A DNA stretch of 64,000 nucleotides from Pseudomonadota bacterium (GTDB lineage: Bacteria; Pseudomonadota; Gammaproteobacteria; Enterobacterales; Alteromonadaceae). Numbering within the stretch: position 1 is the stretch's first letter; each line of letters opens with the position of its first letter. Shown one piece after another: positions 764 through 26,948 of the stretch. The DNA lies in contig JBNJEZ010000009.1 in NCBI GenBank assembly GCA_051746345.1, positions 4,451 to 68,450 on the forward strand, written 5' to 3'. The notes under the pieces are model-generated. The model made no database searches, was not told the DNA's origin, and saw only the letters and a list, made by a program, of their open reading frames with translations. The translations under genes and the position numbers were made by a program.

Positions 764-2806
764 ATGTGGTTAAAAGCGTCCGCACTGGCTGTCGGCATTA
801 GCTTGCTTGCCAGTCCCTATACTGCTGCCGAGGCAGAAACATTTAAAGCCGAAGATATTTTTCAGCTTGAATACGCCAACCAGGTAACCATCTCCCCGGA
901 CGGTAAATACATCGCTTACATCAGAACCAGTTTTGACGACATGAAAGATTCTACACGTGGGTCATTATGGCTGATTGAGACCGACACCGGTGAAGCTTTA
1001 CCCATTTTTGACGATGGCCATAGTTACAGCAACCTCAGTTGGTCCAATGACAGTGGTCGACTGGCTTTCACATCAAACCGAAACGAGAAAAACCAAATTC
1101 ATGTTTATTGGGTGGAACAGCAAAAAGTCGCCAAAGTGTCGCAGGTGCATGAATCGCCCTCCAGTTTAAGTTGGTCAAACGACGACTCAACGATTGCCTT
1201 CATGATGTCAGTAAAAGCACCGCCGACTGATTTCGCCAAATCAGTAAAAATGCCGAGCAAACCTGAAGGGGCAGAATGGTCCGGCAACCCGGTCATCGTC
1301 GAGGAAACTTATTACCAACGGGATGGCAGAGGTATTTTAGATCCCGCCCACCAACAGCTTTTCACCGTTCCTGCACTGGGCGGCACAGCCCGGCAGTTGA
1401 CGGAAGGGCCTTACAGCCACCGCGGTCCACTAACTTGGGCAGCCGACGACAGTAGCATCGTATTTTCAGCTAATCGCAATGAAGATTGGGCGTATCAAGT
1501 TAATGAAAGCGATCTTTATTCGGTGTCTGTCAACGATAAGAAGCTAAGCCAAGTCACTGATATCCCTGGGCAGGAGCATTCGGCCCAGTTTTCGCCTAAT
1601 GGCGAGCGACTGACCTACTTACATAGCGGTAACGAGCCGGTGCCATATCATAAAAGTCAGCTGTGGGTTATGGATTGGGACAGCCAGGACAGCCAACAGC
1701 TGCAAACAGAGTTAGACCGTTCATTCAGTAATCCGCAGTGGACAGGGCAAGACAGTATTGCAGTACAATTTGCAGACCGTGGTAAAAACGTGATTGCGTC
1801 GGTTTCTCTTAACGACGAGATGACCCGTCTTACCGACGATGTTGGTGGAACCTATGTTAGCCGCCCATACACCATGGGCTCATTTAGCGCCGCCGAAAAC
1901 GGCGCTATTGCTTATACTCAGGGCAGCGCTTATCGACCTGCGGACGTTGGTTTCATCAATCCAAGCGCTGAGCGCACAGCGTTAACCGAGCTGAACGAAG
2001 ATTTACTCGGTTATCGCGAATTGGGTGAAGTTCACGAAATTGAATTTGAATCTCGTTACGACGGAGAGCAGATTCAAGGCTGGTATATTACGCCTCCGGG
2101 ATTCGATAGCAGTAAAGAGTATCCTTTACTACTGGAGATCCACGGCGGGCCTCACCTATCTTATGGTCCGCACTTTGCCGCCGAGCACCAGCGGTACGCA
2201 GCTGAAGGCTACGTTGTGTTATATGTTAACCACCGCGGCAGCACCTCGTACGGCAAAGACTTTGCCATGCTACTCGATGGCAACTATTCCTCGCCGTACG
2301 ACTTTGCTGATCACATGAGTGGTGTTGATGCACTTATCGACAAAGGCTTTATCGACAGCAACAACCTGTTTATTGCCGGCGGCTCGGCAGGTGGCATTGC
2401 TACTGCCTATGCCGTTGGTATGACCGATCGATTTAACGCAGCGGCCGCCACTAATCCGGTGATCAACTGGGTCAGTAAAGTACTTACTGCGGATAGCTCG
2501 ATAGGACAAATTCATAACCAATTCCCTGGCATGCCCTGGGAAGAGATAGAGCACTATTGGGAGCGTTCCCCGCTATCGTTAGTCGGCAATGTTAAAACGC
2601 CTGTGCTGTTATTTACCGGCGAAGATGATCGGCGCACACCAATCTCAGAGACTGAACAATTTTATCAGGCGCTTCAATTGCAACAGGTAGACACCGCTAT
2701 GGTAAGAGTGCCCGGCGCCTCTCATGGCGTTACTGCGCGGCCGTCTAATATGATTGCTAAAATTGAACACGCGCTGGCGTGGTTTGCGAAGTATAAACAA
2801 GACTAA
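764..2806 (+). CDS. Secreted S9 family (acylaminoacyl/prolyl oligopeptidase-like) serine peptidase
   Basis: Signal peptide, beta-propeller repeats, HGGP, GGSAGG nucleophile motif, C-terminal Asp and His (ASHG). Confidence 0.9.
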   Translation: MWLKASALAVGISLLASPYTAAEAETFKAEDIFQLEYANQVTISPDGKYIAYIRTSFDDMKDSTRGSLWLIETDTGEALPIFDDGHSYSNLSWSNDSGRLAFTSNRNEKNQIHVYWVEQQKVAKVSQVHESPSSLSWSNDDSTIAFMMSVKAPPTDFAKSVKMPSKPEGAEWSGNPVIVEETYYQRDGRGILDPAHQQLFTVPALGGTARQLTEGPYSHRGPLTWAADDSSIVFSANRNEDWAYQVNESDLYSVSVNDKKLSQVTDIPGQEHSAQFSPNGERLTYLHSGNEPVPYHKSQLWVMDWDSQDSQQLQTELDRSFSNPQWTGQDSIAVQFADRGKNVIASVSLNDEMTRLTDDVGGTYVSRPYTMGSFSAAENGAIAYTQGSAYRPADVGFINPSAERTALTELNEDLLGYRELGEVHEIEFESRYDGEQIQGWYITPPGFDSSKEYPLLLEIHGGPHLSYGPHFAAEHQRYAAEGYVVLYVNHRGSTSYGKDFAMLLDGNYSSPYDFADHMSGVDALIDKGFIDSNNLFIAGGSAGGIATAYAVGMTDRFNAAAATNPVINWVSKVLTADSSIGQIHNQFPGMPWEEIEHYWERSPLSLVGNVKTPVLLFTGEDDRRTPISETEQFYQALQLQQVDTAMVRVPGASHGVTARPSNMIAKIEHALAWFAKYKQD

Positions 2807-3630
2807 TGCAGGTAACAGAATCTCAACTCGTTACTTTGGGGCCTGCCGGCACGTTCTCGGAGCTTGCCGCGCAGACTTGGTTAAAACAACAGTCTCTGGA
2901 CTTAACGATTAACCTACAGGATTCGTTGCCGGCCGTTATTGAGGCCGTCAACGAGTCACAGCTCGGACTTGCACCGATCGAAAATTTAAGCGAAGGCTTT
3001 GTCTCGCCGGTGGTTGATTCTCTAGTTCATAAATCGCTACACATTATTGCCGAGTTAACCCTACCGGTAGAGTTTCAAATTGTGACCAATCATCCCAGCC
3101 CAAGGTCAATTTATGCACAGTTCGTGGCTGCCGGTCAGTGTCGAAGGGCGCTGCAGCAGCTAGCATTACCGGTAACCCATACCAGTAGCAATAGTGAATC
3201 GCTAAACAGTCTATTGGGGACGTCGGAGCCCTCTGCTGCGCTTGTGCCAAGTCATATACAATGCCCGGATCAACTTACTTTATTAAGCTCACGAGCAGCC
3301 GACATCGCGCATAACGAAACTCGCTTTGTGGTATTATCAGCAAATAATTTGGCCCCTGCATACGACCCCAACAGGCGCTGGAAAAGCAGTGTTCTGTTGA
3401 TTGATGACAATGATCATCCAGGACTTCTGGTGGATAGTTTGTCGGTTTTTGCGCGACGAGCTATAAACTTAACATCAATTGTTTCGCGGCCAACCGGGGG
3501 CGGTTTTGGTCAGTACCACTTTTTCATTGATTTTGATGGCCATATTCAACAGTCTCACGTGCAAGAAGCCCTGGAGCAGCTTGCTAAATTAAACCATTTA
3601 CGCTGGTTGGGCAGTTACCAAGCTGCTTAA
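2806..3630 (+). CDS. Monofunctional prephenate dehydratase-like protein (PDT + ACT domain)
   Basis: LGPAGTFSE, PIENLSEG, NETRF, ACT domain with PGLL, SRP, FFIDFDGH, LGSY; TAATG overlap with upstream gene. Confidence 0.8.
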   Translation: MQVTESQLVTLGPAGTFSELAAQTWLKQQSLDLTINLQDSLPAVIEAVNESQLGLAPIENLSEGFVSPVVDSLVHKSLHIIAELTLPVEFQIVTNHPSPRSIYAQFVAAGQCRRALQQLALPVTHTSSNSESLNSLLGTSEPSAALVPSHIQCPDQLTLLSSRAADIAHNETRFVVLSANNLAPAYDPNRRWKSSVLLIDDNDHPGLLVDSLSVFARRAINLTSIVSRPTGGGFGQYHFFIDFDGHIQQSHVQEALEQLAKLNHLRWLGSYQAA

Positions 3631-3657
3631 CCCAATATCTTAGAAACAGGAGAGTAC

Positions 3658-4311
3658 ATGTCACTGGACGTTATAAAGCATGAGCCAAGCCAACCGGCGG
3701 ACGCGGTAATTATCTGGCTACACGGACTTGGCGCATCGGGTAACGATTTTGTTCCGATGACTGAACATTTGCAGTTTGACAATGCCAACCTGCGCTTTTT
3801 GTTTCCTAACGCCCCGCAACTACCGGTGACAATTAATCAGGGCATGGTCATGCCTGCCTGGTACGATATTACTGACATTAGTATCGATCGCACAATAGAC
3901 AGCAAGCAGTTAAGAGAGTCTGCGCAACAGGTGCATGCATTAATTGATCAACAAATAGCGGCAGGAGTTGATAGTCGCCGTATTATTATTGCTGGTTTTT
4001 CGCAAGGTGGCGCGGTCGGCTACGAAGCGGCGTTAACCTACCCTAAAGCACTGGGAGGCTTAATGGCCCATTCGACTTACTTTGCAACGGCCAACGATAT
4101 ACAACCCAGTGACGCTAATAAAGCGTTGCCGATATTGGTCCAGCACGGCACTCAGGATCCGGTTGTGCCGGAAGCATTGGGTCGTAAAGCCGCAGACGAG
4201 CTAAAAAGCCGCGGCTATACGATTACTTATCAGACCTACCCCATGCCACACTCGCTGTGTCTGGAGCAGGTGCAGGATATGAAGCAGTGGCTGACGGCAC
4301 GGTTTAGCTAG
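3658..4311 (+). CDS. Phospholipase/carboxylesterase (alpha/beta hydrolase)
   Basis: WLHGLGA, MPAWYD, GFSQGG, HGTQDPVV, MPHS motifs. Confidence 0.9.
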   Translation: MSLDVIKHEPSQPADAVIIWLHGLGASGNDFVPMTEHLQFDNANLRFLFPNAPQLPVTINQGMVMPAWYDITDISIDRTIDSKQLRESAQQVHALIDQQIAAGVDSRRIIIAGFSQGGAVGYEAALTYPKALGGLMAHSTYFATANDIQPSDANKALPILVQHGTQDPVVPEALGRKAADELKSRGYTITYQTYPMPHSLCLEQVQDMKQWLTARFS

Positions 4312-4319
4312 ATTATTGG

Positions 4320-5405
4320 TTACGCCAGTAGCTGGAGCTCGTTACACCATTGTGAAGCGAGCTTCTCACCCCGCTCAAAGGTATCAATCATAAAGTTTAC
4401 ATGACCGACTTTGCGGCCCGGCCGGGAGTCTTTACCATACCAATGGCAATCGGCTGCTGAGGCCTCCCAAAGAACTTCTGGCAAGCCATCAATACCAATC
4501 GCATTAATCATCAGTGTCGGCGCTACTAAAAAATCCGGTAGCGGCAATCCGGTAATACAACGAATATGTAAATTAAACTGGTCACAGTTGGCACCGCTCA
4601 TGGTCCAGTGTCCAGAGTTATGGACTCTGGGTGCAATTTCGTTAACCAACAGCTGCTGACTCTCGCCATCACCCACCACAAAAAATTCGATGGCTAAAAC
4701 GCCAATGTAATCAATATGATCGGTTAGTTTTTGGTGATATTCCTGCGCTTGTTGCTCTAAAGCTTCCGAAAACTGCTGAGCACCGGCCATGCTATAGGCT
4801 AAAATTCCGTCCTTATGGACATTGACGGTGAGTGGATAGCCACGCTGTTCGCCATGGTGATCGCGGGCAGCAACAACAGACACCTCGTGCGTAAATCCGA
4901 TCATGTCCTCAACGATACCCGGCCGCTGTCCGGCATCCATCGCCAGCGACGAAATATCTTGGCCTGGCTTCCAACGCCACTGACCTTTACCGTCATAACC
5001 GCCCCGAGCTGACTTAATAACAACCGGTTTTTCTGTTTTTTCCAAGATCCGCTGCAGTTGTTCTGCATCCTCAAATGCTTGCCAGGGGGATGTCGGTATA
5101 CCTAGTTCATCACACAATGCTTTTTGTGAGCGACGGTCGGTTAATTGTTTAAACCGCTCGGCTTTCAATAAAAACTTGTCGTTGGTAAGACTAACAAGAT
5201 CATCGGCAAGGTGCTCATGCTCCCAGGTGACTACGTCGGCCCAATTTTTGGCTTCGTCTAACGACAGACTTAACGCCTGCTGACTGCCAAGCGCCATCAC
5301 TTTATGTTCGCGATCACTGTAGAGCACACATTGATGTCCCTGCTGGATAACCGCTTTACCCAACATTTGTCCCAGCTGACCGTTACCGAGAATCAGTATA
5401 TTCAT
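4320..5405 (-). CDS. purK: N5-carboxyaminoimidazole ribonucleotide synthase
   Basis: [39 protein letters not shown]; downstream of purE. Confidence 0.95.
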
Positions 5406-5893
5406 TTAGGAAGCTCCAGATCCGCGTTGGCCATTACCTTATCGCGCTGTCGCTGTCGAAACTGTATCACCCGCTCGCGCACGGTTGCATCGAAAGAACC
5501 AATTATCTGTGCCGCCAACAACCCGGCGTTAGCTGCTCCGGCTTCACCAATAGCCAAGGCACCCACGGCAACACCTTTTGGCATTTGAACGATAGATAGC
5601 AAGCTGTCCATACCTTTTAGCTGCTTACTGGCTACCGGAACACCTAGCACCGGGATTGCCGTATGAGCCGCTAACATTCCAGGTAAGTGCGCTGCACCAC
5701 CGGCTCCAGCTATCACAACTTTGACGTCGTCAATTTCTGCCTGCTCCATGTGCGACTTTAATAAGTCGGGCGTACGATGAGCAGAAGCCACTTTTGCTTG
5801 CCAGTCGACGCCGAGGTCATCGAGCATTAATGCTGCTTTTTGCATTGTCGGCCAGTCAGACTGAGAGCCCATAAGAATTAGAACGGAAGCCAT
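5402..5893 (-). CDS. purE: N5-CAIR mutase
   Basis: [34 protein letters not shown]; start taken as ATG at 5893. Confidence 0.95.
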
Positions 5894-5941
5894 GGAACAC
5901 CTTTTTGATTGGGTAGATTTCAACCACTTGAAAAGCACGGA

Positions 5942-5970
5942 ATTGTAGCCATCGCGGGCCAAAACTGCAA
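5942..5970 (-). promoter_or_regulatory. Putative sigma-70 promoter of purEK
   Basis: Minus strand TTGCAG-N17-TACAAT about 50 nt upstream of purE. Confidence 0.55.
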
Positions 5971-6087
5971 ATAAATCGCAGGTTTTTTGGCCGCCTCCCC
6001 CTATCAATTTAGACCAATGGAGGGTGGCAATCATGCCATTTTAAGGTATGGTTTTAGTCTATTGACTTGTCGTTTAGAGGCCTGAAT

Positions 6088-6633
6088 ATGCTTTTATCTG
6101 CGGAACATTCGTTACTCCTTATCGTTGATGCTCAAGAAAAATTACTACCAGCGATTCACCAGCGCGATAACGTAACTTCACGCATGCGTTGGTTATCGGA
6201 GATAGCTCTACAACTGAGTCTACCGGTACTTATTACTGAGCAAAACCCGAAAGGCCTTGGCTACACAGTACCCAATCTGCAGGAAATAATCGAATCCGCA
6301 CGAGTAGTCGAAAAGACCCACTTTAGCGCGATGAAAGAAGAGAGTTTTCGAGAGGTACTCAGCGAATATAATAAAAAGCAAGTCGTGGTAATGGGTATGG
6401 AGACTCATGTTTGTGTTATGCAGACAGCCATGGAAATGAAGTCAGAGGGTTATCAAGTGTTTTTGCCCTCTGACTGCGTTGGTTCACGCCGACCCAGCGA
6501 TAAAGAGACTGCAATAGAGCGTTTACGTAATAATGGCGTTCATATTATTACTTCCGAAATGGCCGCTTTTGAGTGGTTAGAGAAGTCTGGCACCGACACA
6601 TTTCGGCATATCAGTCGAAACTGGCTGAAATAA
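6088..6633 (+). CDS. Isochorismatase family hydrolase
   Basis: LLIVDAQEKL, TEQNPKGLG, KTHFS, GMETHVCV; ATG at 6088 after GAGG. Confidence 0.88.
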   Translation: MLLSAEHSLLLIVDAQEKLLPAIHQRDNVTSRMRWLSEIALQLSLPVLITEQNPKGLGYTVPNLQEIIESARVVEKTHFSAMKEESFREVLSEYNKKQVVVMGMETHVCVMQTAMEMKSEGYQVFLPSDCVGSRRPSDKETAIERLRNNGVHIITSEMAAFEWLEKSGTDTFRHISRNWLK

Positions 6634-6673: not shown

Positions 6674-6816
6674 CGGAGGTGCTGAGAAAATTCGGCTATT
6701 GATTTGAGATTTGTGTACGAAGTCCTCCTTTTTGCTGTACCTCGTTTTGTAAGTCCAAGTAATACCTAAGTTTCTGAGCAATTGATTTTTAACATGCACT
6801 ACGAGGATATATCAGC

Positions 6817-7023
6817 ATGTCTACTACGACTGGTAAAGTAAAATTCTTTAACGAAGCGAAAGGCTTCGGTTTCATCGAGCAAGAAAATGGCGCGGACGTT
6901 TTCGTTCATTTCAGCGCTATCCAAGCAGACGGTTTCAAAACTTTGGCTGAAGGCCAGCAAGTTTCTTTCACCGTAGCACAAGGTCCTAAAGGTCCTCAGG
7001 CTGAAAACGTCGTTCCTATGTAA
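6817..7023 (+). CDS. Cold-shock protein (CspA family)
   Basis: RNP1 KGFGFI, RNP2 [15 protein letters not shown]. Confidence 0.97.
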
Positions 7024-7045
7024 GCAACGCGTTTAAAGAATTCTG

Positions 7046-7082
7046 AAAAACGCCGCTCTGGTTTCAGAGCGGCGTTTTTTTA
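7046..7082 (+). terminator. Rho-independent terminator after csp
   Basis: AAAAACGCCGCTCTG-GTTT-CAGAGCGGCGTTTTTTTT. Confidence 0.92.
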
Positions 7083-7176: not shown

Positions 7177-8748
7177 ATGAGAGATAACGGGCCTGTAACC
7201 CAGAAAGAGAAACATATTCCAGCGCATTACCGGTTGGTCTCATCGACCGACTTAAAAGGGGTTATTACCCACTGTAACCAAGACTTTGTCGATATCAGTG
7301 GCTATACCGAACAGGAGCTAATTGGAGCACCACACAATATTCTACGTCACCCTGACGTGCCGGCTCCCGTGTTCGAGAATATGTGGAAAACCATTAAGCG
7401 CGGCAAGCCTTGGATGGGGCTTGTTAAAAACCGCAGTAAAAACGGTGACCATTACTGGGTTAGTGCGTATGTTACCCCGATCATGGAAAACGGCAAACCG
7501 AAAGGGTTTGAGTCAGTCAGAGTCCCCACCACTGACGAACGGAAAACGCGAGCTATGGCCGTCTATGAACGGTTGAATAATGGTAAGCAGCCGCTACCGA
7601 CTATCAAACGCCTATGGTTTTCAGTTAAAAACCTGTCTCCGGTTATAATACCTGGCTTATTGGCTACAGCAGCGCTGTGGGTAGTATCCGGTGGTACGGC
7701 AGCGCTAATCTCACTGGCAGCGACGCTCGTTTCTGCGGGCTTTTATCGCCACTACATCAGCTCCATGATGCAACGGCTACTGGATAGCAGACCCGAAGCC
7801 TTCGCTTCCGAACTGGTTGGCATGACCTACTTTCCCACGCATGGCCGCGAAGCTCGGCTAGCAATGTTGTTGCACAGCGAGGCAGCTCGAAACTATACCG
7901 CGTTAACTCGTATCAAAGACGCCGTTGCCGGTATCCTCTCAGTCGCCGAAGACACCCGTCAGCAGGCTCGTAACAGTCACGAGCAAGTTGGCCGTCAGAC
8001 CGCTGCAACCGATCAAACGGCTACAGCCATGAACCAAATGGCGACTGCCATTCAAGAAGTCGCCGGTACCGTTGAAAAGAATGCTGAGCAAGCCGACTTT
8101 GCCCGACAAAATGTTGAACGCAGTGTGGCGCTGGCGCGCGACGCTAGCAGCGTTATCGTCGATTTACATAAAGCGGTAGAACAGATAGCGACAACCGTTC
8201 AAGCGCTGGACGAATCGACCGGAGCAATTGGCGAAGCTGCCGACCTAATCTCGTCCATAGCGGACCAAACGAATCTGTTAGCGCTTAACGCTGCCATAGA
8301 GGCAGCAAGAGCTGGTGAGCATGGCCGCGGGTTCTCAGTTGTAGCGGATGAAGTTCGAAATTTGGCGTCCCGAACTACCGACTCGACTGACAGCATTCAC
8401 CAGGTCATTGCTCAGTTACGAGAACGTGCAAAAGAAGCCGTACAAGTTTCTAGACGCGGTGAGACTGCCGCTGCAGAGGGCGTTGAGAAGGTTCGCAAGG
8501 CCGACGAAGCGCTGGGTGAAATTGCTGAAGCTATCGAACAAATTGCGGCAATGTCGACACAGATGGCATCAGCAGTAGAAGAACAAAGTGGTGTTGCTGA
8601 GCACATTAGTGAGCAGGTTACCGAAATTTCGGACATTGGCCGACAGACACAGAAAACTTCTGAAGACACAGAATCCTCTAGCCAAGAGCTAGAGAAAACT
8701 GTGAAAGAACTGTATGAGTTAATTGAGCGCTTTAATCTGAAGAATTAG
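7177..8748 (+). CDS. aer: Aer-type PAS-domain methyl-accepting chemotaxis protein
   Basis: N-terminal MRDNGPVTQ...HNILRHPD...[11 protein letters not shown], membrane hairpin, [34 protein letters not shown]. Confidence 0.88.
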
Positions 8749-9589: not shown

Positions 9590-10039
9590 CTAGCCGAACG
9601 GTTTTAAGAGCTTATTAACATCAGCAAGAATTGCTTCTTTCATGCTAACTTCATAGCCCTCTCGTTCCTTATCCATTTCCCGTATTTTCTTTTTAGGGAA
9701 CTTTTTTCTATTTTCATGGGTAGGCATATGTTTTATTTTTTCATACATCTCATGCATTGCAGGATAGTCTTTCGAGTAATCATATTCCACCGCTTCTGGA
9801 CGGTGATCAAGGAGCACAACAATACGTAAGCAGCCTTCAGAGAAAGGGCATTGCTCTTGCTGCATCGCCTTAGCAATAGTGATGATACTCTCGTCAATAC
9901 GGTCAACCCGCTTTTGCACCGAATCCCGGCGAAGCTGATTTTGCTGTTTTAACCGACGTAATAGTTTACTAGCGTACAACGCCAGTCCAACAATAATCAG
10001 TACACCCAAAATAATTATTAATAACGTTGTTGCTGACAT
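9590..10039 (-). CDS. DUF2489-like membrane-anchored protein
   Basis: N-terminal TM, IAKAMQQEQCPFSEGCLR, HMPTH; usual neighbour of yihI. Confidence 0.75.
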   Translation of the reverse strand: MSATTLLIIILGVLIIVGLALYASKLLRRLKQQNQLRRDSVQKRVDRIDESIITIAKAMQQEQCPFSEGCLRIVVLLDHRPEAVEYDYSKDYPAMHEMYEKIKHMPTHENRKKFPKKKIREMDKEREGYEVSMKEAILADVNKLLKPFG

Positions 10040-10479
10040 TAGTACTCCTCGTCGTCCCAGTCGTCTTCTATATCAATACCGAGTTTCTCTGCTAATTGTT
10101 CATAACGCTCAGACTTTTTATCCAAATAGCGCTGTTCTTCTGCGCTCAGCTCTTCACCCTGTTCAAAACGCTCAACTAACGTCTGTAGTTTTACATCTTG
10201 CTCTAATTGCTTGAGCTCTTCAGCCGGTGACATTTCGCTTGAACTGCTCGGTTCCAACGGCGTCACTAATGGGATTTTTCGACGGCTACCTTTACGTGGG
10301 TCCTGCTTTTCGGTCGTCTGCTGTTCAGTATGTGATTTTCCACTAGAGTGACGTTGACCGGGTTGATGCCCCTTGCCTTTCTTCTTTCCTTTTACCGTTT
10401 TCTCTGATGTTTTTTCATCGCGAGGTTTTTTTCCCGGGGCTAATGGACCCGGCTTTCTAGATTTCTTTTGGCGAGTCAT
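10039..10479 (-). CDS. yihI: Der GTPase-activating protein YihI
   Basis: MTRQKKSRK, DPRKGSRRKIPL, acidic C-terminus; near engB. Confidence 0.88.
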   Translation of the reverse strand: MTRQKKSRKPGPLAPGKKPRDEKTSEKTVKGKKKGKGHQPGQRHSSGKSHTEQQTTEKQDPRKGSRRKIPLVTPLEPSSSSEMSPAEELKQLEQDVKLQTLVERFEQGEELSAEEQRYLDKKSERYEQLAEKLGIDIEDDWDDEEY

Positions 10480-10569
10480 ACTAATTCCTTATCATGTGCA
10501 ATACAGTTATTGTAACGCATTGCAGGATAATTCGTCAGTGAATGATTGATAGAGAAGGGATTAAAGCCT

Positions 10570-10602
10570 AAAAAGAAAAAAGGCGATGCATTTGCATCGC
10601 CT
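10570..10602 (-). terminator. Rho-independent terminator of the candidate ncRNA
   Basis: Minus strand AGGCGATGCA-AA-TGCATCGCCT followed by TTTTTCTTTTT. Confidence 0.88.
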
Positions 10603-10905
10603 GTCTCTCTCATATTTGGCAGCGCACTGCACCTATGAGAATGGTTGTCACTGCTTCCGAGTTTTTATAATGGTCTTCCGTAACCGGTCTTTTATTATTG
10701 TTTTTATTATATAAAAGGAGCTCCATAGCCAAAAGCATTTTCACTCCCTGGATTATCGAACACTTTTTTGTTGTTCTTAATTATCGATAATCATTCTCGA
10801 CCTCTTGTTATTTTTTTGTGTCGAGCAGTGCCGTCTTTTTAATCAACGATCTTATTATTATTTGTCTGAAGCCCTTCTTAGAAATGAAGGTTTCGCTGCA
10901 GACGC
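10574..10905 (-). ncRNA. Candidate ~330-nt structured regulatory RNA with A-rich loops (CrcZ/CsrC-like sponge or dual-function RNA)
   Basis: Own promoter and terminator, at least five stem-loops, AAN-rich loops, four GGA motifs; csrC-syntenic position upstream of yihI. Confidence 0.68.
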
Positions 10906-10910
10906 TGTAA

Positions 10911-10938
10911 AGACTACTGCAATAAGATTTTTATTCAA
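10911..10938 (-). promoter_or_regulatory. Putative sigma-70 promoter of the candidate ncRNA
   Basis: Minus strand TTGAAT (10938-10933)-N16-TAGTCT (10916-10911). Confidence 0.55.
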
Positions 10939-11037
10939 TGATTTTATTGATCTAAAAAACTCGTTTCTTATTACTTTTTGTTGTAAAAGCGTATATTTTA
11001 ATGATTTATATGCTTTTTGTTATGTTTTTTAGGTCTT

Positions 11038-11062
11038 AAAAAGGGCGGTTATAACCGCCCTT
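11038..11062 (-). terminator. Terminator after cytochrome c4 gene
   Basis: AAGGGCGGTT-AT-AACCGCCCTT followed by T run on the minus strand. Confidence 0.8.
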
Positions 11063-11078
11063 CCATGAAATCGACTTT

Positions 11079-11705
11079 TTAGTATAAGCCGTGTAAGTAT
11101 TTTGACAGTAGCTCTATTTCTTCATCGGTCATTTTTTCAGCAACTCCGCGCATCATCCCATTTGGATCATTTGCACGCTCGCCACTGCGAAACATCTCCA
11201 GCTGCGATATGACATACGCCGGATATTGTCCGGAAATGTCAGGAAACGCAGCTAACCCCATTCCGTTGCCACGAGGGCCATGGCAGCCTGCACAAGAAGG
11301 CACGTTGCTCTCTGGGTTGCCGCGCCGATATAAGTCAGCGCCTTTACTGATGACATCTTCAGCTGTCTCGCCCTTCGGCTCGTCCTGAGCGGCATAAAAC
11401 GCTGCTAAGTCAGCCATATCCTGCTCGGACAGGCTTGCTACCTGACCCATCATAACAGCGTTGTTACGGCCTTCTTCACCACCAGTTTCTGACGCGGTTT
11501 TAAAATCCATTAACTGCTTATACAGATACTTTTCGTGCTGACCAGCAAGGTGCGGGTACATATCCGTAGGCGCCTCGCCCTGAGGTCCATGACATGCGGC
11601 ACAAACTTGTGATTTATCTTTGCCTGCTTCAGGATCGCCTTGCTGGGCTAAAGCCACACCGGTTGATCCTAGAAATAATCCCAAAATAATCGCGAATTTT
11701 TTCAT
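11079..11705 (-). CDS. Diheme cytochrome c4
   Basis: Signal peptide from MKKF, two CxxCH motifs (CAACH, CAGCH); divergent from engB. Confidence 0.92.
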   Translation of the reverse strand: MKKFAIILGLFLGSTGVALAQQGDPEAGKDKSQVCAACHGPQGEAPTDMYPHLAGQHEKYLYKQLMDFKTASETGGEEGRNNAVMMGQVASLSEQDMADLAAFYAAQDEPKGETAEDVISKGADLYRRGNPESNVPSCAGCHGPRGNGMGLAAFPDISGQYPAYVISQLEMFRSGERANDPNGMMRGVAEKMTDEEIELLSKYLHGLY

Positions 11706-11904
11706 GTTTGCTTCTCTTGTATCTCTAGTGGCGAGCGTCGCCGACATACATCGCTATAAACAGTCTGCTATTTTACACAAAACTCATGTGGATTAAATGA
11801 TTAAAACACATTCAATACCGATTTGATCATTGGCTGATGGGTTGTGATCCGTCATAATGGGTACTCGAACACGCCATTCCCAACTATAGAGTGAATCTTG
11901 CACC

Positions 11905-12528: not shown

Positions 12529-13441
12529 CCCGCCTTTAAATGCCTGGTTGTTGCTCGGACTGTTAGCACTCATATGGGGCAGCTCCTTTCTATTAATAAA
12601 GAAAGGTTTAATCGCATTTGGTGCGATGGAGGTCGGTGCGTTACGGATATCATCCGCGGGACTGGTACTCGCTCCTTTAGTCGCTAAACGACTGCATCGA
12701 ATTACGGCCAAGCACTGGGCAAAACTGGCCAGTGTCGGCTTGGTCGGTAGTCTGATACCCGCATTTATGTTTGCTATCGCACAAACTCAGCTGGACAGCG
12801 GCATTACCGGAGTATTGAACGCCCTAACCCCAATTTCGACACTTGTTATTGGTGTTTTATTGTTCCACCAACAAGCAAAAGTCACCCAGATAGTGGGTGT
12901 ACTGATTGGCTTGTTCGGTACCATCTTACTAATGACAGCAGGGGCCGATGGCACTTGGACATTTAACGCCTATGCTTTATTGGTACTGGTGGCGACAGTT
13001 TGTTACGGCCTGAATTTAAACCTTATTAAACACAAAATTTCCGACCTTAGTCCGCTAACGATAACTGGAGTCTCACTCTTGATGGCCAGTATCCCGGCCA
13101 CCTTTTATTTGTTTATCGGGACTGATTTTATTCAGCAGGTTCAGCAACCTGACGCGCTACTCTCGCTAATATCAGTACTTGCGCTTGGCATTATTGGTAC
13201 AGCTGGGGCGCTGGTGATCTTCAATCATGTGGTGCAATTAACTAACACCGTATTTACCAGCTCAGTCACTTATTTAATTCCGGTGGTTGCAATGCTATTG
13301 GGAATTTTTGACGGCGAACCTTTTTGGCTTCAGCACGGCGTCGGTATGCTGGCCATTCTGGTCGGCGTTTGGTTTGCGAACCGAAAAGGAAGAAGCGGAC
13401 TTGCGGGTATCCCCAGAAAAGAAAAAAGCCCGACTCAATGA
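12509..13441 (+). CDS. DMT/EamA family transporter
   Basis: About 10 hydrophobic helices, IWGSSF, two EamA repeats. Confidence 0.88.
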
Positions 13442-13448
13442 GCCGGGC
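13422..13448 (-). terminator. Terminator for the sRNA (and probably polA)
   Basis: 9-bp stem with one G-U pair that only pairs on the minus strand, then U6. Confidence 0.85.
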
Positions 13449-13512
13449 GAAAATATAATCCAGGGAGAACAAATTCTGAAGGCTTAAGCACTAAGCTTAA
13501 TTATTGCCCTCA
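13422..13512 (-). ncRNA. Candidate sigma-E-dependent sRNA (~90 nt) at the Spot 42/ErsA locus
   Basis: Sigma-E promoter immediately upstream, internal hairpin UUAAGC/GCUUAA, CU-rich single-stranded segment, terminator GCCCGGCUC-AUU-GAGUCGGGC-U6. Confidence 0.72.
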
Positions 13513-13517
13513 CTTAC

Positions 13518-13544
13518 TCCGACCGGGGTGCTTAAAAAAAGTTC
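13518..13544 (-). promoter_or_regulatory. Sigma-E (RpoE/AlgU) promoter
   Basis: Minus strand GAACTT (13544-13539)-N16-TCGGA (13522-13518), preceded by an A9 tract. Confidence 0.8.
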
Positions 13545-13559
13545 AGGTTTTTTTTTACA

Positions 13560-16328
13560 CTAGTGAGCCTGATCCCAGTTGTCGCCCTTTCCAGCCTCTG
13601 CAACCAAGGGCACATCAAGGCTTGCAGCCTTCTCCATAACCTTAGCCAATGCCGGCATATAATCATCTAACTTGGACTCTTTAATCTCGAACACTAATTC
13701 ATCATGTACCTGCATCAACATGCGCACGTCCTGCTGGCATTGTTGCTCTTCGATCCAGCCATCAACCAAAATCATCGCGCGTTTGATAATATCCGCAGCC
13801 GTTCCTTGCATCGGCGCATTGATAGCGGCCCGTTCAGCCCCTTTGCGACGAGCGCCATTAGACGCTTTAATTTCCGGTAAAGGCAGTCGACGGCCAAACA
13901 GCGTTTTTACATATCCCTGTTTTTTGGCCCGTTCGCGGGTATCTTCCATATAATTAAGCACACCAGGGAAGCGCTCAAAATATTTATCCATATAATGCTG
14001 AGCTTCGTGACGGGGTATATCCAGTTGCCGCGCAAGACCGAATGCCGACATGCCATAAATCAATCCAAAGTTAACCGCCTTAGCGCGCCGCCGCTGCTCA
14101 TCGCTAACGTCACCAAGGGCGCATCCAAACACTTCTGCTGCGGTCGCCCGGTGAATATCCTTGCCCTCGGCAAAGGCTGTTAATAATGCTTTATCTTGCG
14201 ATAAATGGGCCATTATGCGTAATTCAATCTGGCTATAGTCAATAGCGACTATCTTATAACCAGCTTCCGGCACAAAAGCTTGCCTTACGCGGCGTCCCTC
14301 TGCCGTGCGAATCGGAATGTTTTGCAGGTTAGGCTCGGTTGATGACAGTCTCCCTGTTGCTGCTACGGCTTGCTGATAGGAGGTGTGCACTCGCCCGGTA
14401 CTCGGGTTAATCATTCTTGGCAGCTTATCGGTGTAGGTCGATTTTAGCTTAGATAAGCTACGATGCTTCAGGATAACGTCCGGCAGCGGGTAGTCGTGCG
14501 CCAGCTCATGCAATACGTCTTCGGCGGTAGACGGTGCCCCTTTAGGTGTTTTCTTTATTACTGGCAACTCAAGCTTTTCAAATAAGATTTGCTGTAGCTG
14601 TTTGGGCGACCCCAGATTAAACTCTTCGCCGGCGATATCGAATGCTTCGCGCTCATACTGAATCAGTAGATCGGCTATCTCATGGCTTTGTTTAGCGAGC
14701 ATCTCCGCATCGATTCTTACGCCATACTGTTCCATATCGGTTAATACCGGAATTAAAGGCACTTCAATGTCGGTTAAAACTGTTAATAGCTCATCACTGG
14801 TTGCTTTAACTTTTTCCCATAGAATTTCATGCAATCGCAGCGTAACGTCGGCATCTTCAGCGGCATAAGGGCCTGCCTCTTCTAATGCAACCTGATTAAA
14901 CGTTAACTGCTTAGCGCCTTTACCTGCAATATCCTGGAACTTAATCGGCTTGTGGTTCAAATACTGCAGACTTAAGGTATCCATATCATGCCTGGAGCCG
15001 ACGCTATTGAAGACATAAGAAGCCAACATTGTATCGTTTTTGATTCCGGCAAGACGAATACCGTAGCGCCGTAAAATATGAGCGTCATACTTTAGGTTTT
15101 GCCCTACTTTACCCGGCTTTTCACTCTCGAGTAATGGCGCTAATTGCTCAAGTAACCAATCCCTGGATACCTGTTCTGGCGCGTCCATGTAGTCGTGCGC
15201 GACCGGAATATAAACGCCTTCGCCAAGCTCCGTCGATAACGATACTCCGACTAACTCAGCGTCCATATAATTCAGGCTTGTTGTTTCCGTATCAAATGCG
15301 AAGTAATCAGAGTTCTTAACTTTTTGTAAGTACTCACTGACCTCACTTTCCTTAAATAGGGTTCGGTAAGCATCTCTCTCAACCGCGGTGTCGGGTTCGT
15401 TGGTTGGCTCTTCCAGCCCCAGCGCCTGATCAGTTGCAGCCCCTTTTTCAAGCAACTCTTCTAACCAGCGGCGGAATTCACAGCGGCCATACAGTTCAGC
15501 CAACTGATCATTATCAGCCGGAGTAATAGACAGCTGTTGCGGGTTAAAATCAAGCTCAACATCACACTTAATAGTCGCCAGCTCTTGCGACATAAACAGT
15601 TGCTCACGGTACTCCTCGAGCTTTTTCGGCATAGTCTTCGCACCTCTAAAGTTCAGCGAAGCTACTGCATCGACGTCGTCATAAATGGCTTCAATCGAAG
15701 GAATGCCTTGTAGTAGTGCTTGAGCCGTTTTGTTACCAACTTTTGGCAAACCAGGAATGTTGTCCGAGCTATCTCCCATTAGTGCCAGATAATCAATAAT
15801 TTGATCAGGGCTAACTCCAAACTTCTCTTTGACGCCTTCTTCGTCCAGCAAAGTATCGGTCATCGTGTTGATCAGCATAACGTGTTCATTGACCAGCTGC
15901 GCCATATCCTTGTCGCCGGTACTAATCAACGTAAAGCGCCCTTCCTGACCCGCTTGTGTTGCTAAGGTACCAATAACATCGTCTGCCTCTACTCCGTCAA
16001 TGCATAACAGCGGTAACCCCATTGCTTTGACAATTTCATGTAAAGGCTCAATTTGAGTTCTTAAGTCATCCGGCATTGGCGGACGGTTTGCTTTATAATC
16101 CGCGTAAATATCACTCCGAAAAGTTTTACCTTTCGCATCAAAAACCACCGCCATATTTTCGGGTTTATAGCGTTTTAGCAGGCTACGGAGCATGTTTACA
16201 ACGCCGTAAATAGCGCCCGTTGGCTCTCCCTTAGAGTTTGTTAGATGAGGAGGAGCATGGAATGCGCGAAACAAATACGAGGAGCCATCCACTAAAATGA
16301 ACGGGTTCTCCGATACACTTTTGGTCAT
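13560..16328 (-). CDS. polA: DNA polymerase I
   Basis: 5'-3' exonuclease (LVDGSS, EADD), 3'-5' exonuclease (FDTET), polymerase motifs DYSQIELR, KAVNFGLIYG, QVHDEL. Confidence 0.99.
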   Translation of the reverse strand: MTKSVSENPFILVDGSSYLFRAFHAPPHLTNSKGEPTGAIYGVVNMLRSLLKRYKPENMAVVFDAKGKTFRSDIYADYKANRPPMPDDLRTQIEPLHEIVKAMGLPLLCIDGVEADDVIGTLATQAGQEGRFTLISTGDKDMAQLVNEHVMLINTMTDTLLDEEGVKEKFGVSPDQIIDYLALMGDSSDNIPGLPKVGNKTAQALLQGIPSIEAIYDDVDAVASLNFRGAKTMPKKLEEYREQLFMSQELATIKCDVELDFNPQQLSITPADNDQLAELYGRCEFRRWLEELLEKGAATDQALGLEEPTNEPDTAVERDAYRTLFKESEVSEYLQKVKNSDYFAFDTETTSLNYMDAELVGVSLSTELGEGVYIPVAHDYMDAPEQVSRDWLLEQLAPLLESEKPGKVGQNLKYDAHILRRYGIRLAGIKNDTMLASYVFNSVGSRHDMDTLSLQYLNHKPIKFQDIAGKGAKQLTFNQVALEEAGPYAAEDADVTLRLHEILWEKVKATSDELLTVLTDIEVPLIPVLTDMEQYGVRIDAEMLAKQSHEIADLLIQYEREAFDIAGEEFNLGSPKQLQQILFEKLELPVIKKTPKGAPSTAEDVLHELAHDYPLPDVILKHRSLSKLKSTYTDKLPRMINPSTGRVHTSYQQAVAATGRLSSTEPNLQNIPIRTAEGRRVRQAFVPEAGYKIVAIDYSQIELRIMAHLSQDKALLTAFAEGKDIHRATAAEVFGCALGDVSDEQRRRAKAVNFGLIYGMSAFGLARQLDIPRHEAQHYMDKYFERFPGVLNYMEDTRERAKKQGYVKTLFGRRLPLPEIKASNGARRKGAERAAINAPMQGTAADIIKRAMILVDGWIEEQQCQQDVRMLMQVHDELVFEIKESKLDDYMPALAKVMEKAASLDVPLVAEAGKGDNWDQAH

Positions 16329-24256: not shown

Positions 24257-25575
24257 TGACAAATAATAGAAACCAGGCCTCTGGTGCTGAAAGCCGGGCA
24301 GCCGCCGCAAGAATACTCTTTCGCATCCTTGAGCAAGGGGAAAGTTTATCAACAGCTTTTCCTGCGGAAACAAAGACTCTGGATGCCGGTGACAAGCGGC
24401 TAGCTCAAGCTATTAGCTACGGTGTATTAAGGTTCTTGCCGGCGCTCAATAAGCTGGTCGCTGCTAAGCTCGACAAGCCGTTAAAAGGTAAGATTAAAAT
24501 ATTAAACTCTCTTTTGTTAGTGGGCGCTTACCAACTTTATCAGCTACGCACAAAAGACCATGCTGCCGTCAGTGCAACGGTGGAAGCAGCCAAACTGCTT
24601 AAGCGAAAAAATCACACGGGCTTGATCAATGGCGTACTCCGTCAGCTGTTACGCGAAGCACCCGAGCGCGATGAAAATGAGCAACGCCCTCTTCCCGCTG
24701 ATGCATTAGAAAACCATCCCCGCTGGCTTGTCGACATCATAAAATCCGATCACCCGGACCATTGGTTAGAATTATTACAAGCCAATAACCAACATCCGCC
24801 TATGTGGTTACGTGTGAATCTTAACAAAACCTCTCGCTCCGACTACCAGACTCAGCTCAGCGATAAAGGCATCAATGCGACCGCTGACGACCTGGTACCC
24901 AGCGCGCTGCGGTTGGATAAAGCCACTAGTGTTGACCAGTTGCCGGGATTTGAGCAAGGGGCTGTATCAGTTCAGGACCGTTCTGCACAAATGGCGGCTT
25001 TTCTGCTTAACGCAGACCCCTCACATAACGTCTTAGACTGCTGTGCCGCTCCTGGAGGAAAAACACAACACCTGCTTGAGCAACACCAATTCGCAACGCC
25101 TTTAACGGCTATCGACATTGATCCTCGCCGGCTAGTGCGTGTCGAGGAAAACCTGGCCCGCCAGGAGCAACCAGCGAAGGTTATTTGCGCCGATGTTATC
25201 GATACTGAAAGTTGGTGGGACGGACAGCTTTTTGACCGCATCCTGTTAGACGCTCCCTGCTCTGCCACCGGGGTTATTAGACGTCACCCTGACATTAAAT
25301 GGCTACGTCGTTCATCAGACATTGATGCGTTGGTGGCACTTCAAGCTAAGATTCTTGACCATATTTGGCCGTTAGTTGCCAACGGTGGTGAACTCCTATA
25401 CGCCACCTGTTCAGTTATTAGCAAAGAAAATCAACAGCAGGTCGATAGCTTCCTAGAACGAACAAGCGATGCTAATCTCATACCTATCAATGAGCAGACA
25501 GACACATTGCAAATTCTTCCCGCAGCAGATGGTGGCGACGGGTTCTTTTACGCAAGGTTTAAAAAGCAACAATGA
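24256..25575 (+). CDS. rsmB: 16S rRNA m5C967 methyltransferase
   Basis: NusB-like N-terminus, [25 protein letters not shown]. Confidence 0.96.
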
Positions 25576-26948
25576 AAATTATCATATTAGGTGTTGGCCA
25601 GGTAGGCGGTACGCTGGCAGAAAATTTAGTTGGTGAGCGCAACGACATTACTGTTGTCGATACGGATACCGAGTTACTGGAAGAACTGCAGGATAAACAT
25701 GACCTACAAATCATTGTGGGTCACGGCGCACACCCCGATACTTTGCGCCGCGCCGGAGCAGATGACGCCGATCTACTCATTGCAGTCACTAACAGTGATG
25801 AAACCAATATGATTGCCTGTCAGGTTGCTTATTCAATATTCAACACCCCAACCAAGATTGCCCGTATCCGCTCAGAAGAATACATTCGTTACCGAGACCA
25901 GCTGTTCCATAAAAATGATGCGCCGGTGGACTTTATTATTTCACCAGAGCAGTTAGTCACCAACTACATCAAGAAGCTGATCGATTATCCTGGCGCACTG
26001 CAAGTTATGGAATTTGCCAGTGGCCGCGCCAGTTTAGTAGCAGTTAAAGCCTACTATGGCGGTAAGCTAGTAGGCCACGCAATTTCTAACCTGCGTGAAC
26101 ATATTCCGAATATTGATACCCGCGTGGCAGCAATTTATCGCCAGGGAAAACCCATTCGGCCAACCGGAACCACGGTTATCGAAGCAGACGACGAAGTCTT
26201 TTTTATCGCCGACACGCGTCATATCAGTACGGTCATGGAAGAGCTTCAAAAGCTTGAAACGAAGTACCGCAGAATAATGATTGTCGGCGGCGGAAATATA
26301 GGTGCAGGGCTTGCCAAGCAGCTGGAAAGCGATCACCGCGTTAAGCTGATAGAAAGAGATGAAGCGCGAGCCGAAGAACTGTCTCAACGATTAGAGCATA
26401 CCTTGATTTTTAAGGGCGATGCCTCTGACCAGAAGCTGTTAGAAGAAGAGCACGTCGAAGACATAGATGTCTTTATTGCCGTCACTAACGATGACGAAGC
26501 TAACATTATGTCAGCAATGCTGGCAAAACGTATGGGCGCCCGTAAAACCATGGTCCTTATCCAGCGTAGTGCCTACGTAGACCTAGTTCAGGGCGGCGAA
26601 ATTGATATTGCGATATCACCACAACGAGCGACCATCTCAGCGCTGTTAACGCATGTCCGCCGGGGCGATATAGTTAATGTTTATTCGCTTAGAAAAGGTG
26701 CCGCTGAAGCCATTGAAGCGATAGCTCATGGCGATGAAAAGACGTCTAAAGTCGTGGGCAATGGGATCAAAGATATTAAGTTACCACCCGGCACGACTAT
26801 CGGTTCCGTCGTTCGTGGTAATGAAGTGCTAATGGCACACAGCGAAACAATTATTCAGTCTGACGACCACGTGATCCTGTTTCTGCTGGACAAAAAGTAT
26901 ATCGACGAGGTTGAGCGGTTATTTCAGCCTAGCGCCATGTTCTTCTAG
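25572..26948 (+). CDS. trkA: Trk potassium uptake NAD-binding subunit
   Basis: [12 protein letters not shown], second GGGNIG RCK domain, 458 aa. Confidence 0.97.

Follow-up and report, generated by a model that had tools for sequence, protein, structure and literature searches.

In Escherichia coli, where the genes run polA-spf-yihA-csrC-yihI, the CsrC RNA is dependent on BarA-UvrY, and csrC homologues, among them one with few GGA motifs proposed in Shewanella, always adjoin yihI/yihA (Kulkarni et al., 2006); CsrC is credited with 14 GGA motifs (PMC11882849). The Pf3 small RNA (sRNA) of Pseudoalteromonas fuliginea BSW20308, with 9 such motifs, binds CsrA both in vitro and in vivo, as judged by electrophoretic mobility shift assay, RNA immunoprecipitation sequencing and a glycogen assay (Commun Biol 2025, PMC11882849). 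The Pf3 gene occupies a slot between a cytochrome c4 gene (D172_RS16045) and the gene of a YihI-type GTPase-activating protein (D172_RS16040), which is followed by hemN. Among RNAs directed against other RNAs, SroC targets GcvB, the chbBC decoy targets ChiX and QrrX targets the Qrr sRNAs; the majority of the known sponges arise by processing of mRNAs or of tRNA spacers. The CrcZ RNA of Pseudomonas carries six AANAANAA motifs of the Hfq-binding type. Described here is an RNA gene in the slot of csrC and Pf3, within a window of 64,000 nucleotides from an Idiomarina genome (a 24-nucleotide (nt) pattern taken from the RNA matches 22 Idiomarina/Idiomarinaceae records and one chance record). With a probability of roughly 0.55, we read this RNA as a diverged CsrC/Pf3 orthologue whose role would be that of an RNA decoy associated with Hfq; any binding of CsrA would be residual.

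10570-10906, minus strand: non-coding RNA gene of about 335 nt, from a predicted start at about 10904-10906 through the U-run of the terminator, identified by conservation, fold and RNA contigs

This reading draws on the predicted complementarity of two invariant sites within the RNA, sites A and B, to two predicted sRNAs of the same genome.

10744-10756, minus strand: site A (AUAAUCCAGGGAG), with the first conserved GGA motif (CAGGGAG); UCCAGGGAG is kept in almost all genomes
10637-10660, minus strand: site B (UCGGAAGCAGUGACAACCAUUCUC), with the third conserved GGA motif (UCGGAAG)
13416-13544, minus strand: sigma-E-type sRNA of about 90 nt occupying the Spot 42 slot directly downstream of polA; 27 of 28 genomes of the genus have it

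The other partner, sRNA-R, is a predicted gene of about 120 nt in the ruvB-ybgC gap (contig C17, about 25510-25650, minus strand; locus L059/L060), equipped with a strong sigma-70 promoter (TTGATA-N16-TATAAT) and a U8 terminator. It is present, with its promoter conserved, in 27 of 28 genomes of the genus and in the sister genus, and consists of three invariant modules and a terminator stem whose sequence differs between species. Site B finds its complement in the 5' module of sRNA-R (GAGnUUGGUUGUCACU...) and site A in the middle module (GUUCCCUGGA), the latter site being complementary to the CCCUGGAU-type seeds that sRNA-R and the sigma-E-type sRNA have in common. In the sRNA downstream of polA the seed UUGUUCUCCCUGGAU (13455-13472) is invariant, the promoter is sigma-E-like (GAACTT-N16-TCGGA here, GAACTT-N16-TCnnA in the alignment), and the 5' hairpin and terminator differ between species by changes that look compensatory by eye. 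A BLAST search did not find this sRNA in the sister genus. Neither of the two sRNAs belongs to an Rfam family, the only matches being sub-threshold ones to anti-hemB/mmgR; loci around cytochrome c4 in two other genera gave sub-threshold matches to Spot 42 (45.8 and 37.7 bits).

Duplex energies were judged against 600 dinucleotide shuffles of the long RNA and 1500 random genome windows. Site B and the 5' module of sRNA-R form a predicted duplex of -31.3 kcal/mol, a value reached by none of the shuffles (0/600) and none of the windows (0/1500), and site A yields -24.8 kcal/mol with the seed of the sigma-E-type sRNA (1/600 shuffles, 2/1500 windows) and -22.8 kcal/mol with the middle module of sRNA-R (3/600 shuffles, 11/1500 windows). 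In the 21 genomes of the genus for which it was computed, the site B duplex stays between -29 and -39 kcal/mol, and ungapped pairing at this site is kept in 27 genomes, two of which belong to the sister genus. The predicted pair at the position that follows GACAACC varies: most species have A:U, one has G:U and another U:A, with G:C found in the sister genus, and two further positions of site B and sRNA-R change in step. Within the genome, the 11-mer AGUGACAACCA has two locations, the long RNA and the strand antisense to the sRNA-R gene. The predicted complementarity goes beyond chance and has been kept in evolution, the support from compensatory changes, which are few, being modest.

A third sRNA-like element of the genome, on the plus strand of contig C1 (253676-253805), has CACUCCCUGGAUUAGA directly before its terminator and also carries GGGUUGUCG; sRNA-R or the sigma-E-type sRNA may be paralogous to it, and it too would match site A. 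On the minus strand of contig C22 (about 6800-6830), UCCAGGGAG forms the Shine-Dalgarno region of a gene that encodes a signal-peptide protein, with the ATG 9 nt further on, which makes this gene a candidate mRNA target of sRNAs with the CCCUGGAU seed.

The fold in which the two sites are embedded (10574-10905) has a predicted energy of -87.5 kcal/mol (z = -4.8), with none of 100 shuffles equally stable. Stem conservation was scored over 17 representative Idiomarina species, across which four hairpins (H3, H4, H6 and H7) and the terminator are kept, with some compensatory changes. The internal elements are as follows.

10864-10903, minus strand: 5' hairpin in the minimum free energy fold, as computed for this species; the sequence is wholly different between subclades
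10851-10863, minus strand: A-rich tract 1 (AAAUAAUAAUAAG), conserved in the genus
10831-10849, minus strand: hairpin H2, with a compensatory change from U-A to C-G in 6 of 21 sequences
10796-10825, minus strand: hairpin H3 (CUCGAC/GUCGAG), whose stem becomes AUCGAU/AUCGAU in two species
10751-10792, minus strand: hairpin H4 (GAUUAUCGA/UCGAUAAUC), stem kept, with four pair types at one position
10688-10710, minus strand: A-rich tract 2 (AAU/AAC repeats), kept both in the genus and in its sister genus
10672-10685, minus strand: hairpin H6, of CsrA type, whose loop ACGGAAG holds the second conserved GGA motif
10607-10641, minus strand: 3' hairpin H7 (UCUCAUA/UAUGAGA), its pairs kept in 15-17 of 17 species and mostly invariant

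The H6 stem is kept in 16-17 of the 17 species with three pair types, one subclade has CUGGAUUUC/GAAGUCCAG in place of the H4 stem, and the 5' arm of H7 overlaps site B by 5 nt. An original prediction, made from the letters of the window, had proposed a discrete, structured non-coding RNA here, and this is borne out by the stability of the fold, by RNA contigs and by the presence of the RNA in all 24 other genomes sampled (see below). The promoter TTGAAT-N16-TAGTCT and the hairpin and terminator strings that it quoted are all found at their minus-strand places, and a BLAST comparison of the cytochrome c4-yihI intervals finds the RNA conserved in the genus, with compensatory changes in the stems of H2, H3, H4 and H6. 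Two of its proposed helices fare poorly at their central positions: the long-range CACUGCU/AGCAGUG helix pairs there in only 2-3 of 17 species, and the CUUUUAU/AUAAAAG stem in only 2-5 of 17. As to the A-rich loops that it emphasised, the 18-nt loop of H3 (10802-10819) is near-invariant, but the loop of the second hairpin, H4, is variable and is A-rich only in the subclade of this species. The invariant stretches AUAAUCCAGGGAG and UCGGAAGCAGUGACAACCAUUCUC, which include UCGGA and one arm of the supposed long-range helix, are better explained as predicted sRNA pairing sites.

The density of A-rich motifs is extreme for the genome. Among all 330-nt windows of the 2.35-Mb sequence, this locus ranks top for AANAANAA, with 14 overlapping matches versus 9 at the next locus; the RNA itself holds 11 of these overlapping matches, and in 20 of 21 species the RNA has 9-13 such motifs. 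Next in ARN density is the ruvB-ybgC gap of contig C17, on the other strand of which sRNA-R is read, and a second ARN-dense candidate, locus C2, was set aside as the coding region of infB. GGA motifs show no enrichment: the RNA has 4 versus a mean of 5.5 in dinucleotide shuffles, and 3-7 are found per RNA across the genus. Of the four that had been listed for this RNA, CAGGGA, ACGGA and UCGGA are conserved (as CAGGGAG, ACGGAAG and UCGGAAG) and AUGGA is not; only the one in H6, on a covarying stem, is clearly presented by a loop, the other two falling in the predicted single-stranded pairing sites.

The best-conserved single-stranded parts of the RNA are the putative sRNA pairing sites, flanked by A-rich tracts of Hfq type, and a decoy function is therefore favoured. 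In the mechanism that we propose, the RNA of Idiomarina and its sister genus, which are devoid of UvrY/GacA, would have shed most of its CsrA-binding GGA motifs, with three left; it carries dense (ARN)n tracts, of the type bound by the distal face of Hfq, beside two invariant single-stranded sites. It would dock on Hfq in the manner of an mRNA target, with ARN tracts next to pairing sites; pairing would then join site B to the 5' module of sRNA-R, and site A to the CCCUGGAU seed of sRNA-R and of the sigma-E-type sRNA, so that the decoy would sequester these sRNAs or be degraded together with them. The binding of CsrA would be a low-valency remainder at most. Binding to Hfq, any remaining binding to CsrA and the way in which regulation runs, with the RNA as a sponge or as a regulator, belong to the inferred part of this model. 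Such an RNA would resemble SroC/GcvB, the chbBC decoy/ChiX and QrrX/Qrr in having sites complementary to modules of Hfq-type trans-acting sRNAs. Unlike most known sponges, it is a long stand-alone gene with predicted sites for at least two sRNAs and exceptional ARN density, and appears to be descended from a protein-sponge RNA.

Such descent is suggested by the genomic position. The local gene order is polA (13560-16328, minus strand), a short sRNA-like unit, a transporter gene and yihA on the opposite strand, cytochrome c4, the RNA and yihI, in agreement with the E. coli order and with the csrC-syntenic position originally claimed. Like CsrC of E. coli and Salmonella (RF00084), the RNA is located directly upstream of yihI, co-oriented with it and near yihA; like Pf3, it fills the cytochrome c4-yihI gap as an independent gene of a few hundred nt with its own promoter and terminator. 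Because Pf3, in the same slot, binds CsrA, the RNAs of this slot form a family of known Csr-type sRNAs, and the suggested link to CsrA holds by ancestry, through the Pf3/csrC slot. CsrC differs from the Idiomarina RNA in being GGA-rich and BarA-UvrY-dependent, whereas here GGA is at chance level, UvrY is absent and the CsrC model finds no match; Pf3 has 9 GGA motifs versus 3-7 in Idiomarina, of which three are conserved and none are in excess.

At least 12 other genera of the Alteromonadaceae have a related RNA gene of 240-330 nt on the downstream side of cytochrome c4. It contains 5-9 GGA motifs and 6-11 AANAANAA motifs, and one of its hairpins, comparable to H3, presents an A-rich loop on a stem that reads CUUC/GAAG or CUCU/AGAG (by eye). 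Shared with the Idiomarina RNA, in the same order, are the -10 hexamer TAnTCT, the block AAUAAAG..GGAAGACC..AAAACAA, the block CGG(G)AG.AGUG(U/A)CA and a AGGCGAUG-type terminator. The H6 region has GGAAGACC and A-rich flanks in common with GUCAGGAWGACC, which is the best-conserved block among the related RNAs of 12 other genera. Idiomarina has mutated forms of GGA motifs present in those genera, for example AAGAUC or AAGACU for AAGGAC, and the counterpart of A-rich tract 1 in those genera is AAUAAUAAGGAC; one GGA has therefore been lost from the Idiomarina tract. Unlike the Idiomarina RNA, the slot RNAs of other genera do not carry the pairing sites: sRNA-R was not found by BLAST in five of these genera, whose slot RNAs are without sites A and B. 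The related RNAs fail the Rfam CsrC and CsrB models as well, and no CsrC was called by Rfam in 20 yihI loci from other families of the order. Four of these 20 loci (L146, L147, L149 and L158) have GGA-rich units upstream (11-18 GGA per 500 nt), co-oriented with yihI and with a T-run 70-230 nt before it; although the CsrC and CsrB models of Rfam leave them uncalled at gathering score, they are likely unannotated csrC-type genes.

The clade that carries the pairing sites also differs in its regulators. No UvrY/GacA orthologue was found in three complete Idiomarina genomes and the assembly G000 (G000, G004, G007 and G019) or in three genomes of the sister genus (G159, G118 and G070), the best matches being 30-34% identical, and orthologues with 52-61% identity are present in four other genera of the Alteromonadaceae. 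The best BarA match in G000 is only 30% identical, and no palindromic GacA box was seen by eye upstream of the RNA; csrA and hfq are both present in the genome. A single clade therefore combines loss of UvrY, loss of GGA density and the occurrence of sRNA-R together with its pairing sites. It is possible, though we advance it only tentatively, that after loss of GacS/GacA (BarA/UvrY) a protein sponge of CsrC/Pf3 type was converted into an RNA hub, shedding GGA sites, holding on to A-rich tracts of Hfq type and acquiring sites for the capture of one lineage-specific sRNA and of sigma-E-type sRNAs.

Several observations weigh against the decoy reading. The complementarities were spotted post hoc. 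With the own partner 22.0 of 28 positions are paired, versus 21.6 +/- 0.16 with permuted partners (P = 0.014), a modest difference in a test that ignores phylogeny, and the covariation rests on few events because both pairing partners are almost invariant. The U/G-rich 3' module of sRNA-R (UUGUUGUU), the pairing of which with the A-rich loops was also considered, reaches -16.5 kcal/mol with the A-rich RNA, a value matched by 192/600 shuffles and 165/1500 windows, and this pairing was rejected as no better than chance. Homology to the Pf3-type RNAs is at the limit of detection, Pf3 itself having been compared by slot and description: a full-length profile of the RNAs of other genera found no match in G000, and for a profile of their 3' half the best match in the whole genome is the 3' end of this RNA, at E = 0.44 only.

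That the RNA gene is real, non-coding and has its own promoter and terminator is clear from its conservation and surroundings. The stretch is present in all 24 other Idiomarina genomes sampled (69-96% identity by BLAST), always between cytochrome c4 and yihI where it was matched, and within the Alteromonadaceae a BLAST search with the Idiomarina RNA matches only Idiomarina and one sister genus; a profile search of the genome with nhmmer found no paralogue. The alignment across the genus has a near-invariant promoter region, a subclade-specific 5' segment, and invariant internal blocks and terminator, and places a separate conserved yihI promoter 3' of the RNA terminator. The signals and flanking genes, which leave a gap of 599 nt for the RNA, are listed here.

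10939-10982, minus strand: A/T-rich region ahead of the promoter, nearly invariant in the genus
10933-10938, minus strand: -35 hexamer TTGAAT; TTG is kept in the genus, and other genera have TTGTAA/TTGTTG
10911-10916, minus strand: -10 hexamer TAGTCT; TAnnnT is kept in the genus (TAGTCT, TATTGT, TAGTGT or TAGGCT)
10570-10602, minus strand: intrinsic terminator, called at 10581-10602; the stem is nearly the same in some other genera
11079-11747, minus strand: cytochrome c4-like (dihaem) gene, the upstream flank, with its own terminator at 11038-11060
10039-10479, minus strand: yihI, the downstream flank (NF003560, 119.6 bits), with its own conserved promoter at 10509-10538

The promoter spacer is 16 nt here, and hexamers resembling TTGAAT-N16/17-TAGTCT are found across the genus; the -10 hexamer of the related RNAs in other genera is TATTCT, TAATCT or TATGCT, and the AAAGTTGT element of the upstream A/T-rich region recurs at their promoters.

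Metatranscriptome RNA contigs from three studies (two of salt lakes, one of seawater) cover only 10647-10893 within the unit, with a word depth of 1800-6260 on the RNA versus 24-43 on yihI and 55-185 on cytochrome c4 (one run), and their adapter orientation agrees with that of minus-strand cytochrome c4 contigs. No RNA contig covers 10503-10636 or 10905-11038, and none bridges the RNA and yihI. The contigs end at 10660, 10648 and 10647, within site B, with the adapter attached in one run. These ends may mark a processing site in the region of the sRNA-R duplex, a possibility not used as evidence here, but could equally reflect an effect of stable 3' hairpins or of the invariant stretch on library or assembly, since the cytochrome c4 contig likewise ends at its own terminator hairpin. 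The contigs cannot define the transcript ends and were therefore used solely as evidence for a discrete, abundant RNA; such a transcript exists.

Three other accounts of the RNA have to be weighed. It is unlikely, in our judgement, that the RNA is an ordinary CsrA sponge that has kept the function of CsrC/Pf3 and sequesters CsrA dimers mainly through its GGA motifs, even though it occupies the slot of both, the H6 hairpin with its loop ACGGAAG matches the most conserved block of the related RNAs, csrA is present and a csrC homologue with few GGA motifs has a precedent in the Shewanella proposal (Kulkarni et al., 2006). Nor is another sponge in sight, a window scan of the genome having found no GGA-dense non-coding locus (the candidates were tRNAs, small open reading frames (ORFs) or repeats) and Rfam no CsrB (best match 12.2 bits, outside this locus), although with the G000 assembly 87% complete another sponge could lie in the unassembled part. 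A GGA total at or below chance sits poorly with this account, as do the position of two of the three conserved motifs inside the putative RNA-RNA pairing sites, the mutation in Idiomarina of GGA motifs found in other genera and the lack of UvrY/GacA, the usual activator of Csr sRNAs; the Rfam CsrC model (RF00084) reaches 9.6 bits versus a cut-off of 61, on the terminator only. Improbable, too, is a protein sponge like CrcZ, the identity originally suggested, whose A-rich tracts would titrate Hfq with base pairing inessential. Like CrcZ and CrcY of Pseudomonas, the Idiomarina RNA is a long, highly expressed sRNA with many AANAANAA motifs; hfq is present, the locus is the densest of the genome for the motif, the tracts are conserved across the genus and in the related RNAs, H3 and its counterparts present A-rich loops on species-variable stems, and the RNA word depth is very high. 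CrcZ, however, is driven by a CbrB/sigma-54 promoter, has Crc as a partner and lies beside cbrB, not cytochrome c4/yihI. The conserved promoter of the Idiomarina RNA is sigma-70-like, and no sigma-54/CbrB-type promoter (no GG-N10-GC element) was found at the RNA. No Crc protein was found in the genome either: its Exo_endo_phos proteins are XthA, ExeM and a 416-residue orphan, relatives have additional members, which are either YafD-like or an orphan without a PDB relative, and complete relatives give the same Crc-less picture as the incomplete G000 assembly. A 250-residue XthA-like protein was considered as Crc and rejected, as it has no PDB relative and is found in only two genomes. The best local matches to the Rfam CrcZ model (RF01675) score 12.7 and 12.2 bits versus a gathering threshold of 95. 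Membership in CrcZ is thereby rejected; the likeness is limited to the A-rich motifs, the genome-extreme density of which is real. Rfam yielded no family for the RNA, either at the gathering threshold or at E <= 10. A-rich tracts of the same kind are, moreover, present in the related RNAs from genera with UvrY and a larger number of GGA motifs, and titration of Hfq leaves unexplained the invariant sites A and B, which are not A-rich, and their complementarity to sRNA-R.

It is very improbable that the unit is a cis-acting leader of yihI or the mRNA of a small protein. It is co-oriented with yihI, and an ORF of 44 codons (10610-10744) is preceded in this genome by a Shine-Dalgarno-like GGGAG. 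The start, frame and length of this ORF are not conserved, however, and it is broken even in a relative with 96% identity; the RNA ends at its own terminator, yihI has a separate conserved promoter, no RNA contig connects the two, and an inserted methyltransferase-like gene separates the slot RNA from yihI at loci L021-L024 (four Idiomarina species), as also at L159 in another genus. Because the ORF is unconserved, yihI has its own promoter and these insertions occur, the unit is neither a leader nor a small-protein gene.

Sponge RNAs of the Csr/Rsm type are usually recognised by their GGA density, and the present locus shows that an RNA of the yihI slot can persist without it. Literature searches found no paper on Idiomarina sRNAs. 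If the decoy model is true, a natural series would run from GGA-rich, Pseudoalteromonas-like genera to the GGA-poor, pairing-rich Idiomarina, in which a change in the mode of action of a regulatory RNA could be studied, with a testable network of partners (sRNA-R, the sigma-E-type sRNA, Hfq and CsrA) that correlates with the loss of UvrY/GacA. The conversion to an RNA hub, if true, would mean that a protein-sponge RNA became an RNA sponge through which the CsrA, Hfq and envelope-stress networks are linked. If the RNA were instead an ordinary weak CsrA sponge, it would merely be a divergent member of a known family. The A-rich tracts, being found family-wide, suggest that Pf3-type RNAs may contact both Hfq and CsrA.

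Elsewhere in the window, the sole Rfam match at gathering level is a cspA thermoregulator (6677-7079, plus strand; 107 bits), which lies directly upstream of a gene for a PAS-containing chemoreceptor (7177-8748).

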